A DNA stretch of 64,000 nt from Escherichia coli (GTDB taxonomy: Bacteria > Pseudomonadota > Gammaproteobacteria > Enterobacterales > Enterobacteriaceae): the NCBI RefSeq assembly GCF_011045215.1, contig NZ_CP049201.1. One strand, written 5' to 3'. The stretch's first letter is position 1; every line of letters begins with the position of its first letter. Positions 27,001 through 30,000 of this stretch are shown piece by piece. Made by a program: the position numbers.

Positions 27001-30000
27001 CCTGATTTATATCAAGGGCAATAGCTCTACCAATGAATCTGCCAGCTTCACCTTTACTGGCGTGGTAAAAGCACCGTTCTATAAAGACGGCGCATGGAAA
27101 AACGATCTGAACTCACCGGCTCCGCTGGGCGAACTGGAGTCTGCCTCGTTCGTCTATACCACACCGAAGAAGAACCTGAATGCCAGCAATTACACTGGCG
27201 GACTGGAGCAATTCGCTAACGATCTGGACACCTTTGCCAGCTCGATGAATGACTTCTACGGTCGTGATGAAACGAGCGGTAAGCACCGGATGTTTACCTA
27301 TAAAGCATTGACGGGACATAAACATCGTTTCGCTAACGATGTGCAGATCTCCATCGGTGATGCGCACTCGGGTTATCCGGTAATGAACAGCAGCTTCTCG
27401 ACGAACAGCACCACGCTGCCGACGACGCCGCTGAACGACTGGTTGATCTGGCACGAAGTAGGGCACAACGCCGCAGAAACGCCGCTGACTGTTCCAGGCG
27501 CGACCGAAGTGGCGAACAACGTGCTGGCGCTGTACATGCAGGATCGCTATCTCGGCAAGATGAACCGTGTCGCTGACGATATTACCGTCGCACCGGAATA
27601 TCTGGAGGAGAGCAACAACCAGGCATGGGCACGCGGCGGTGCGGGTGACCGTCTGCTGATGTACGCACAACTGAAGGAATGGGCAGAGAAAAACTTTGAT
27701 ATCACGAAGTGGTATCCAGAAGGTAACCTGCCTAAGTTCTACAGCGAGCGTGAAGGGATGAAAGGCTGGAACCTGTTCCAGTTGATGCATCGTAAAGCAC
27801 GCGGCGATGAGGTCAGCAATGACAAGTTTGGCGGTAGAAATTACTGTGCCGAATCCAACGGTAACGCTGCCGACACGCTGATGCTGTGTGCCTCCTGGGT
27901 CGCCCAGACGGATCTTTCGGAGTTCTTTAAGAAATGGAATCCAGGTGCGAATGCTTACCAGTTGCCGGGGGCGAGCGAGATGAGCTTCGAGGGCGGTGTG
28001 AGCCAGTCGGCTTACAACACGCTCGCGTCACTCGATCTGCCGAAACCGAAGCAAGGGCCGGAAACCATTAACAAGGTTACCGAGCATAAGATGTCAGCCG
28101 AGTAAGCCTGTATGCCGGATAAGGCGCTCGCGCCGCATCCGGCATGAAATAAGGCGCACCGGGTCAACACATATGCCCGATGCGCAAGCTTATCGGGCCT
28201 ACAGAGAGGGAAAGCTGCGTTTATTTGCGTTGGCAGACACCTGTAGGCCGGATAAGGCGCTCGCGCCGCATCCGGCATGAAATAAGGCGCATCGGGTTAA
28301 CACATATGCCCGATGCGCCATCTTATCGGGTCTTCAGGGAAAGCCGCGATTACTTGCGTTGGCAGATACCTGTAGGCCGGATAAGGCGTTTTACGCCGCA
28401 TCCGGCAAGTTACAACAAACAACCTTTAACCATGCTTTTTGATGTTTTTCAGCAATACCCCGTGGCGATGCCCATACTGGCTACCGTCGGAGGATTGATC
28501 ATCGGCAGTTTTTTGAATGTGGTGATTTGGCGTTACCCCATCATGCTGCGCCAACAAATGGCGGAGTTTCATGGTGAAATGCCGAGTGCGCAGTCAAAAA
28601 TAAGCCTTGCGCTACCGCGTTCGCACTGCCCACATTGTCAGCAGACCATCCGGATACGTGACAATATTCCGCTGCTCTCCTGGCTGATGCTCAAAGGGCG
28701 CTGCCGTGATTGTCAGGCGAAAATCAGCAAGCGTTATCCGCTGGTGGAGTTATTGACGGCACTCGCTTTTTTGCTGGCGAGCCTGGTGTGGCCGGAAAGT
28801 GGATGGGCGCTGGCGGTGATGATATTATCCGCCTGGCTGATTGCCGCGAGCATCATCGACCTCGATCACCAATGGCTGCCCGATGTTTTTACTCAGGGCG
28901 TATTGTGGACGGGACTAATTGCGGCATGGGCGCAGCAGAGCCCGCTCACGCTACAAGATGCAGTCACCGGCGTCCTGGTGGGATTTATCACTTTTTACTC
29001 GCTGCGTTGGATAGCCGGAATAGTTCTGCGTAAAGAAGCATTAGGCATGGGCGATGTATTACTTTTCGCCGCTTTAGGTGGCTGGGTGGGGGCGTTGTCG
29101 CTGCCCAATGTGGCTTTAATCGCCTCATGCTGCGGCCTGATATATGCCGTTATTACAAAAAGAGGATCAACCACACTGCCTTTTGGACCGTGTTTAAGTC
29201 TGGGCGGTATAGCAACACTTTATCTACAGGCATTGTTTTAATGATAACCACGTCATTATCAAAGTGACATTTTAACTCTTATTAATAACCTTAGAGATTA
29301 TTTACCATGTCGATAAAACAAATGCCAGGGAGGGTATTAATATCGCTATTGTTGAGCGTTACAGGATTATTAAGTGGCTGTGCCGGCCATAATGAAAATG
29401 CCAGTTTACTGGCGAAAAAACAGGCGCAAAATATCAGCCAAAACCTGCCGATTAAATCTGCGGGATATACCTTAGTGCTGGCACAAAGTAGCGGCACGAC
29501 GGTAAAAATGACCATTATCAGCGAAGCGGGTACTCAGATCACGCAGACGCCAGACGCCTTTTTAACCAGCTATCAACGACAAATGTGCGCTGATCCAACG
29601 GTGAAATTAATGCTCACTGAGGGAATTAATTACAGCATAACGATTAATGATACACGTACAGGTAACCAGTATCAGCGGAAACTGGATCGTACCACCTGTG
29701 GAATAGTCAAAGCATAACGTCGGGTAGATATAAATTGGCGCGGGTTGTTTTTCGTGACGCACGAATTTATCTCATTCAATGGCTGACAAAAATTCGTCAC
29801 ACTCTTAACCAGAGACAATCTCTTAATACAGACAAAGAGCATCTGCGAAAAATTGCACGCGGGATGTTCTGGCTGATGCTGCTTATTATTTCTGCAAAAG
29901 TGGCGCATTCACTCTGGCGTTATTTCTCCTTTTCTGCGGAATATACGGTGGTTTCCCCATCGGTGAATAAACCGCCCCGTACGGATGCAAAAACGTTCGA

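Follow-up and report, generated by a model that had tools for sequence, protein, structure and literature searches.

Layout of the sslE-pppA spacer

The window, by which we mean the whole 64-kb stretch of Escherichia coli DNA analysed here, carries sslE (yghJ), the gene of the SslE mucinase, followed on the same strand by pppA; the closest genome's PGAP annotation leaves 326 nt (28106-28431) between the two coding sequences. This gap is an untranslated spacer inside the sslE-pppA-gspS-gspC-M operon; co-transcription of sslE with the T2SS genes is described in the passage of PMC5012682 that cites Yang 2007. An earlier note on this DNA had placed a REP/BIME cluster at 28106-28425, a range that corresponds to nearly the entire gap. 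The features of the locus are as follows.

23543-28105, + strand: sslE (yghJ) coding sequence (ORF list; closest genome's PGAP annotation transferred to window coordinates)
28103-28105, + strand: sslE stop codon, TAA (PGAP mapping; ORF list)
28110-28144, + strand: y-type REP 1, 35 nt, tetranucleotide GTAT, starting 5 nt past the stop codon
28145-28173, + strand: head-to-head linker 1, with a partial z1-like half-site AAGGCGCACCGGG
28174-28202, - strand: z1-like REP 1, 29 nt, an iREP on the + strand with a CTAC end
28180-28431, + strand: in-frame upstream extension of the pppA ORF, 84 codons, running through REP sequence
28203-28242, + strand: tail-to-tail long linker 1, 40 nt, weakly resembling the BIME-1 L linker; IHF consensus absent
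28243-28277, + strand: y-type REP 2, 35 nt, intact GTAG, AA/GC bulge, predicted -20.9 kcal/mol
28278-28306, + strand: head-to-head linker 2, with a partial z1-like half-site
28307-28335, - strand: z1-like REP 2, degenerate, GAAG replacing GTAG and one stem base changed
28336-28371, + strand: tail-to-tail long linker 2, 36 nt (repeat comparison)
28372-28407, + strand: y-type REP 3, 36 nt, GTAG, loop TTTTA, predicted -21.7 kcal/mol
28408-28431, + strand: pppA leader, CA-rich, kept in all alleles examined
28432-29241, + strand: annotated pppA coding sequence, 269 aa, start ATG at 28432 (PGAP of the closest genome)

Five REPs occupy the gap, three of them y-type and two z1-like in the opposite orientation, giving the strand order + - + - +. 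The earlier description of three near-identical palindromes filling the gap holds for the y REPs, but the two inverted z1-like REPs had been missed. Because these lie in opposite orientation, the repeated unit is a composite of 129-133 nt and no single palindrome. Tandem Repeats Finder reported a period of 133 across 28107-28407 (2.3 copies, 88% matches, score 459), and a repeat search recovered a direct repeat of 101 nt at 92% identity within the array.

The three y REPs follow the pattern GTA[G/T]GCCGGATAAGGCG-loop-CGCCGCATCCGGCA and all share the stem GCCGGAT-AA-GGCG...CGCC-GC-ATCCGGC, whose AA/GC mismatch appears as an internal loop in predicted folds. The GTAG tetranucleotide is present in y REP 2 and y REP 3 and point-mutated to GTAT in y REP 1, the single base that separates y REP 1 from y REP 2; the K-12 allele has GTAG at this position. 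The mutation lengthens the stem, and the y REP 1 hairpin is predicted at -23.4 kcal/mol when a 39-nt segment is folded and at -24.0 kcal/mol when folding begins at the stop codon. y REP 3 stands apart in its loop alone (TTTTA versus CTCG).

Agreement with the BIME-1 z1 consensus extends to 26/30 positions in z1-like REP 1, which has both GTAG and the AA/GC bulge and differs in its loop and by a compensatory stem change from GCCTGAT/ATCAGGC to GCCCGAT/ATCGGGC (T-A to C-G). z1-like REP 2 agrees at 22/28 positions and has one stem pair broken, and on this comparison both units are best called z1-like. The half-site in linker 1 and the following iREP give an alternative predicted hairpin at 28154-28185 (-16.5 kcal/mol), and linker 2 has an alternative predicted 12-bp hairpin at 28286-28319 (-25.5 kcal/mol). 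No obvious Shine-Dalgarno sequence was found in the pppA leader.

The array is an atypical BIME

REP and BIME definitions were taken from PMC3333891 (Ton-Hoang et al. 2012, Bachellier/Gilson classification) and PMC8266576, the latter giving the AA/GC mismatch in the stem bulge as a REP criterion. As expected of y-type REPs, the y units are extragenic palindromes of about 35 nt with GTAG, the AA/GC bulge and dispersed copies. Against the y part of the BIME-1 consensus they agree at 32/34 and 33/35 positions, all mismatches falling in the loop; a search with the BIME-1 consensus recovered it in 5,425 of 5,426 genomes, at 97-98% identity and with coverage of 80% or more. The y-REP and z1-like patterns gave no match in 100 dinucleotide-preserving shuffles, and with a generic REP regular expression these five were the only REPs in the entire window. 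Outside this locus, y REP 2 is identical to a REP lying between bglX and osmF in strain 2012C-4606, and the identical z1-like iREP, with the long linker and a y variant, occurs as a single module at yggR-ruvX in another strain. A 521-nt query matched a median of five places per genome. Comparison with the REP consensus had been set as the refuting test of the proposed REP/BIME cluster; the units match that consensus, near-identical REPs lie at REP325 and bglX-osmF, and the identification stands.

REPs and iREPs alternate through linkers with a period of 133 in 2.3 copies, as in BIMEs generally. Atypical BIMEs are chimeric (BIME-1 features mixed with BIME-2 features), multicopy and strain-variable in number (PMC3333891), and the array joins y and z1-like REPs and a long linker (BIME-1-like) to tandem repetition (BIME-2-like). 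Judged by sequence, the array is shown to be an atypical BIME made of 2.3 tandem copies of y, head-to-head linker, inverted z1-like REP and long linker. Like the atypical BIMEs of PMC3333891 it is tandem, well conserved within the locus and of strain-variable number, and nothing essential differs, although here z is a z1 variant with the GCCCGAT/ATCGGGC stem and the L-like linker lacks the IHF core. The element type is already known and is an ordinary E. coli repeat. The term REP was absent among the matches listed from the sslE, yghJ and T2SS literature, and the RepRanger supplements make no mention of the sslE-pppA locus.

Several related classes were tried and rejected. BIME-1 (RIP-RIB, y - L - z1) is single-copy with a conserved L linker that frequently carries an IHF site, whereas the modules here are tandem, at 2.3 copies and up to 3.3 in strain THO-010, and lack the IHF consensus; when each tail-to-tail module is aligned with the BIME-1 consensus, 78 of 106-107 columns nonetheless agree. 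The long linkers are similar in length to the L linker (36-40 nt), but local identity to L is only 12/16 to 15/21 and the IHF core is replaced. A BIME-2 or gyrase target was set aside on the REP scan, which found neither a z2 (37-nt) REP nor a short S linker, in contrast with REP325. An Rfam search of the gap returned nothing at gathering score, its sub-threshold matches being to naRNA4 alone (RF02564; best 37, 35.9 and 30.8 bits against a gathering score of 59.5). The search for an intrinsic terminator, sought as a GC-rich hairpin with a U tract, found no terminator-like site on the + strand in 27600-28900.

A close counterpart of tested function is REP325 (yjdM-yjdN, K-12), likewise an intra-operon tandem array in which GTAG-oriented y REPs alternate with inverted z REPs. 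The first REP of REP325 also lies near the upstream stop codon with a mutated tetranucleotide (GTAA there, GTAT here). Its y units are identical to those of the window or one loop base apart: the 30-nt palindrome core of y REP 2 is the core of the first REP325 y unit, and y REP 3 has one extra loop T. The two differ in class, REP325 being a BIME-2 with z2 REPs, short linkers and a 100-nt period in six copies, whereas the array has z1-like REPs, long linkers and a 129-133-nt period in 2.3 copies.

Predicted effect on sslE and pppA-gsp expression

The spacer RNA is predicted to fold at -155.8 kcal/mol (z = -6.67 against shuffles), with individual hairpins predicted at -10.7 to -25.5 kcal/mol. 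Read in the sense of the mRNA, the y REPs have the GTAG orientation, and up to five stable hairpins would form across the array. Such hairpins would bar 3'-to-5' exonucleases from the sslE segment upstream of them and would in part attenuate transcription into pppA-gsp. Rho would probably contribute to this attenuation, the spacer being long, untranslated and without a U-tract terminator. No C-rich, G-poor rut-like stretch was evident in the gap (C/G 0.6-1.3), so the proposed role of Rho draws solely on the REP325 analogy and the long untranslated spacer. As a net outcome, sslE message would exceed machinery message.

Deletion of REP325 raises its downstream gene about 8-10-fold and lowers its upstream gene at least 3-fold; the stabiliser and attenuator roles demonstrated there are extended here to the sslE-pppA array by analogy. 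The malE-malF intercistronic REPs likewise sit between a highly needed first gene and the membrane-machinery genes of one operon, and are treated, in the part of PMC12306157 that cites Newbury 1987 and Khemici & Carpousis 2004, as the classic case of upstream mRNA stabilisation against exonucleases; theirs is a different locus with a different REP arrangement, the likeness being drawn from the literature. At the sslE-pppA locus itself, K-12 RNA-seq gives baseMeans of 1472 for yghJ (4563 nt) and 62.4 for pppA (810 nt), an approximately 4.2-fold lower density, as raw DESeq2 baseMeans divided by gene length for an allele with two y REPs in a poorly expressed, H-NS-silenced operon. Expression rises again at yghE and yghD, downstream, so the profile is also explicable by internal promoters or differential decay. 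PMC5471185 held no usable expression numbers for the locus.

From these comparisons we think it fairly probable that this atypical BIME acts as a stabiliser of sslE and a partial attenuator toward pppA-gsp, the dual role of intra-operon BIMEs. We further infer that the array may set the SslE:machinery ratio, the standard reading for an intra-operon BIME, which agrees with the REP325 experiments and with the roughly 4-fold drop from yghJ to pppA in K-12. REP effects have been described as context-dependent and not uniformly stabilising. The first hairpin, moreover, may stall terminating ribosomes and trim SslE output, since it starts 1-8 nt past the stop codon. The net effect on the ratio is consequently unpredictable, because SslE would go up with stabilisation and down with stop-proximal stalling.

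Copy-number variation and alternative explanations

At the same locus, sslE-pppA gaps of 129, 139, 147, 155, 163, 197, 326 and 459 nt were found among E. coli genomes. One intact y REP is present in the 129-163-nt gaps, in which the distal y REP is cut down to its 3' half; K-12 has two (197 nt), the window three (326 nt) and THO-010 four, its gap being that of the window plus exactly one 133-nt unit. A junction that only arrays of three or more y REPs contain was found in 155 of 5,426 genomes (~3%). Decay is visible in GTAT of y REP 1, GAAG of z1-like REP 2 and the half-palindrome REPs. By contrast with this variation, all nine alleles examined retain an intact first y REP directly behind the sslE stop codon, including those of sslE variants with a different C-terminus.

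The alleles, compared at the level of sequence, show gain and loss of whole units at this locus, which probably proceeded by slippage, unequal recombination between repeats or TnpA(REP) activity. In the last respect the array resembles REPIN/RAYT (TnpA-REP) elements, which are likewise pairs of REP and inverted REP with the GTAG tag and stem bulge that TnpA(REP) needs. GTAG is reportedly indispensable to the E. coli enzyme (PMC8266576), whereas y REP 1 (GTAT) and z1-like REP 2 (GAAG) have lost it. The span of copy number from 1 to 4, together with the decayed copies, shows that array size is weakly constrained, and a tightly set SslE:machinery ratio is disfavoured on the same grounds.

This variability is what would be expected if the array were a selfish or neutral repeat, a BIME-1-like module lodged in a tolerant untranslated spacer and growing or shrinking there through slippage, unequal crossing-over or TnpA(REP) action, with any effect on expression incidental. 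The range of one to four y REPs, the decayed units, the restriction of arrays with three or more to ~3% of genomes and the related single module in the unrelated yggR-ruvX gap all point this way, and we consider such an explanation possible, if somewhat unlikely. Set against it are the constancy of the stop-proximal y REP, even where the sslE C-terminus differs, the fall in K-12 read density across the element and the large measured effects of REP325, a BIME of the same layout. In any case, a repeat of neutral origin could still affect expression today.

The constancy of the stop-proximal hairpin in all alleles could also mean that the array acts mainly on translation, the hairpin holding the terminating ribosome short of the sslE stop codon and thereby leading to mRNA cleavage, tmRNA rescue and less SslE, with the other units as passengers. 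According to Liang, Rudd & Deutscher 2015, as reported in the relevant part of PMC12306157, a REP that lies closer than 16 nt to a stop codon lowers translation of the upstream gene. The first hairpin falls within this limit, with 5 unpaired nt between it and the sslE stop codon in the window's own allele and a spacing of 1, 5 or 8 nt across nine alleles. We regard a mainly translational role as unlikely, as SslE is abundantly secreted in expressing strains, the stop-distance rule derives from a limited set of reporter genes, and the tandem array would be left unexplained. Less probable again is a bolder extension of the stabiliser and attenuator reading, according to which unit number (1-4 y REPs) would serve as a heritable, reversible dial of SslE:T2SS-beta stoichiometry, with gain and loss of units, such as the exact 133-nt duplication of THO-010, as a contingency-like switch, and combined with tmRNA-dependent trimming of SslE by the stop-proximal REP; were it true, the dial would set secretion capacity, biofilm formation or virulence.

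A role at the level of DNA, in which IHF, DNA gyrase, Pol I or HU/naRNA would act at the array on supercoiling or nucleoid structure between two highly transcribed units, seems very unlikely. BIME-1 L linkers bind IHF and gyrase cuts BIME-2, according to literature cited in the pertinent section of PMC3333891, and the weak Rfam matches are to the REP325-derived naRNA4. Yet neither strand of the gap contains the IHF site WATCAANNNNTTR at up to one mismatch, the linkers have the IHF core replaced, the absence of z2 REPs and short S linkers argues against a BIME-2, the naRNA4 matches fall far under the gathering score, and a recent study saw no nucleoid role even for REP325.

Least credible of all is that the gap serves pppA, whether by supplying pppA-gsp with an internal promoter or a regulatory leader (it contains no sigma-70-like promoter) or by encoding a longer PppA from 28180. 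An ORF does run in frame from 28180 to 29241 (353 aa against the annotated 269 aa), but no Pfam domain matches its 84 additional codons, and A24_N_bact begins at residue 105 of the 353-aa ORF, 21 residues past the annotated pppA start. The length of the extension varies by allele (0, 32, 41 or 84 codons), its translation is Arg-rich, as is typical of REP-encoded sequence, and PGAP gives a 269-aa PppA in every genome inspected. The extension is an artefact, as the earlier note had maintained.

The main value of these results lies in correct annotation: the spacer is repeat DNA, neither coding nor promoter sequence, and the start of pppA is fixed at 28432. Its length polymorphism (129-459 nt) also makes the gap a place where assembly, PCR typing and ORF calling can go wrong. 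Should the attenuator and stabiliser role prove true, differences in unit number between E. coli strains would let SslE and T2SS expression vary cheaply and independently of promoters, which would be of modest practical interest because SslE is a vaccine candidate.

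Anatomy of the sslE–pppA spacer

The record NZ_OZ282453.1 is identical to the window (100%) over 521 nt around the repeat array, against 98.2% and 96.7% in the flanks (window 1-40366); the window strain is a different one, and the sslE–pppA locus appears mosaic. PGAP annotation of this record places gspS2, gspC through gspL and yghD (GspM family) 3' of pppA. Between sslE (yghJ) and pppA, sequence inspection and a REP regular expression revealed five REPs, with no further REP in the 64-kb window.

Features of the sslE–pppA locus (window coordinates)
23543-28105, + strand: sslE (PGAP, NZ_OZ282453.1)
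28106-28431: sslE–pppA gap, 326 nt
28110-28144, + strand: y-type REP1 (sequence and REP regular expression, as for all REPs below)
28174-28202, - strand: z1-like REP 1
28243-28277, + strand: y-type REP2
28307-28335, - strand: z1-like REP 2
28372-28407, + strand: y-type REP3
28432-29241, + strand: pppA, 269 aa (PGAP, NZ_OZ282453.1)

The three palindromes described in the earlier note are thus present as y REPs, but the anatomy is richer, with two inverted z1-like REPs alongside them. The repeat unit is a composite of a y REP, a head-to-head linker, an inverted z1-like REP and a long tail-to-tail linker. Each consensus pattern gave 0 matches in 100 dinucleotide-preserving shuffles, Tandem Repeats Finder reported a period of 133 (2.3 copies, score 459), and the two full units share 88.7% identity; the array is therefore genuine, well beyond what chance would produce.

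Downstream, the CA-rich pppA leader (28408-28431; AAGTTACAACAAACAACCTTTAACC) is kept in all alleles examined and holds no recognisable Shine-Dalgarno sequence. ORF calling yields a longer frame of 353 aa (28180-29241), in which A24_N_bact starts at residue 105. Its 84 extra codons are translated REP sequence specifying an Arg-rich peptide without a Pfam domain, and the extension measures 0, 32, 41 or 84 codons depending on the allele, confirming that it is artefactual, as had been suspected.

Elsewhere, the window is colinear with NZ_OZ282453.1 and K-12 up to 40366, 23 nt into the 3' end of tRNA-Phe (pheV). The segment 40344-64000 has the appearance of a genomic island integrated at pheV; the only trace of the tRNA is the direct repeat of its 3' end, and ARAGORN detected no tRNA in the 64-kb window. 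ORFs of the segment match AbiEii, DUF4942, DUF932, a YeeP-like GTPase, a WYL domain, YagK/YfjJ and DUF3987. The sole Rfam match above gathering score in the window is the C0719 sRNA (RF00117, 299 bits; 21079-21300, - strand), between glcB and glcA. In the closest annotated genome, the yghS–yghO interval (window ~2260-12070) holds genes annotated for an LPS-biosynthesis protein, lptF/lptG paralogues, serine palmitoyltransferase (spt), an acyl carrier protein, an epimerase and a fatty acyl-AMP ligase, a putative sphingolipid-like gene set in E. coli.

Class of the array

REPs are defined as imperfect palindromes of 30-40 nt (y 35, z1 29, z2 37) with a GTAG tetranucleotide 5' of the palindrome foot and an AA/GC mismatch bulging the stem (PMC3333891; PMC8266576). 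REP2 and REP3 show all three features, and REP1 departs only in having GTAT where K-12 has GTAG, which bears out the REP identification. As a reference we used a BIME-1 (y-L-z1) consensus, checked against complete E. coli genomes (97-98% identity over 100 nt; at least 80% covered at a site in 5,425 of 5,426). The y parts agree with it at 32/34 and 33/35 positions, the z1-like parts at 26/30 and 22/28, with a compensatory stem change (GCCTGAT/ATCAGGC to GCCCGAT/ATCGGGC), and the long linker at 12/16 to 15/21 positions of L. REP2 is identical to the bglX–osmF REP of strain 2012C-4606, and its palindrome core to that of the first y unit of REP325, the tandem BIME-2 in the K-12 yjdM–yjdN operon; one loop T separates REP3 from the other REP325 y units.

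Tested as a BIME-1 (single copy, L linker with IHF site) or a BIME-2 (z2, short linker), the array fails on both counts, since the gap contains no IHF consensus at up to 1 mismatch and the array no z2 unit. Its sequence fits the description of an "atypical BIME", a chimera in multiple copies (PMC3333891). Rfam naRNA4 gave sub-threshold matches (at most 37 bits against a 59.5-bit cut-off). The copy of the K-12 record NC_000913.3 used for comparison shows no repeat_region or REP features, even in the yjdM–yjdN gap that bears REP325, so absent REP annotation in the genome collection is uninformative.

A single BIME-1-like module lies in the yggR–ruvX gap of strain NDM3 (locus L011, 4001-4104), with an L-like linker and a y variant (GGTTGGAT…ATCCAACA, compensated stem). 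Its iREP is identical to the z1-like unit of the array, indicating that the GCCCGAT form of z1 occurs at dispersed sites and is not confined to the sslE locus. The array is an ordinary element of a known kind, correctly spotted.

Allelic variation and a possible neutral reading

The same locus carries a REP/BIME in K-12 too (197-nt gap, two y REPs and one z1-like REP). In other genomes the gap measures 129, 139, 147, 155 or 163 nt; a single intact y REP comes after the stop codon, the z1-like unit is either retained or lost, and all that is left of the distal y REP is its 3' half. The THO-010 allele (locus L009, 1500-1958) has four y REPs in a 459-nt gap, whose sequence is that of the window gap with precisely one 133-nt unit added, pointing to a very recent single-unit duplication. 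A query across the junction unique to arrays of three or more y REPs was covered to at least 80% in 155 of 5,426 genomes, O55:H7, STEC and ETEC strains among them. Across 60 evenly spaced ranked genomes, three y REPs occurred in 2, four in 1, the K-12-like 197-nt gap in 9, gaps of 155-163 nt in 6 and of 129-147 nt in 22, the locus being absent from 20. Some sslE variants (L006 290-330; L010 400-440, other sslE–pppA alleles) differ in C-terminal sequence (…TEYSMPAE*); there the stop codon abuts a y REP lacking GTAG, with the hairpin starting 1 nt after the stop.

That the number of tandem copies varies at a given locus has been described before for this class (PMC3333891). The strongest rival explanation is a repeat that is neutral or selfish, with no constraint on its size at the sslE–pppA site, a reading supported by the copy-number polymorphism and decayed copies; against it stand the invariance of the first REP and the effects measured for REP325, a BIME of the same layout.

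RNA structure and proposed role

The spacer RNA is far more structured than its shuffles (-155.8 kcal/mol; z = -6.67), with single hairpins predicted at -10.7 to -25.5 kcal/mol and alternative hairpins from the head-to-head linkers predicted to compete with the z1-like ones. The first hairpin begins 5 nt after the sslE stop in the window; in every other allele the distance is 1, 5 or 8 nt. The gap holds no sigma-70-like promoter and, on its + strand, no U-tract terminator; support is poor both for the gap as a promoter or coding sequence of pppA and for a DNA-level role (IHF, gyrase, nucleoid).

Co-transcription of sslE with the T2SS genes is stated in PMC5012682, citing Yang 2007. REPs and BIMEs act, according to references in PMC12306157, both as stabilisers of the mRNA upstream of them and as attenuators of transcription; the paper also reports reduced translation of a gene when a REP follows its stop codon by less than 16 nt. 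REP325, which in the mRNA sense has the same layout as the sslE–pppA array, limits its downstream gene ~8-10-fold and stabilises the upstream one, partly in a Rho-dependent manner (bioRxiv 10.64898/2026.03.23.713779). DESeq2 tables of that study give K-12 baseMeans of 1472 for yghJ, 62.4 for pppA and 5.0 for yghG (per kb ~323, ~77 and ~12), yghE and yghD being higher again; this per-kb drop agrees with the role proposed below, as a weak test in which K-12 carries another allele and expresses the operon poorly.

The earlier note held that the array probably sets the ratio of SslE to secretion machinery. As no mention of REPs was found in the leading search results for the sslE/yghJ literature, we infer this function by analogy: the array would protect the sslE mRNA segment and damp read-through into pppA–gsp, whilst stalling of ribosomes close to the stop codon may cancel part of the SslE gain.
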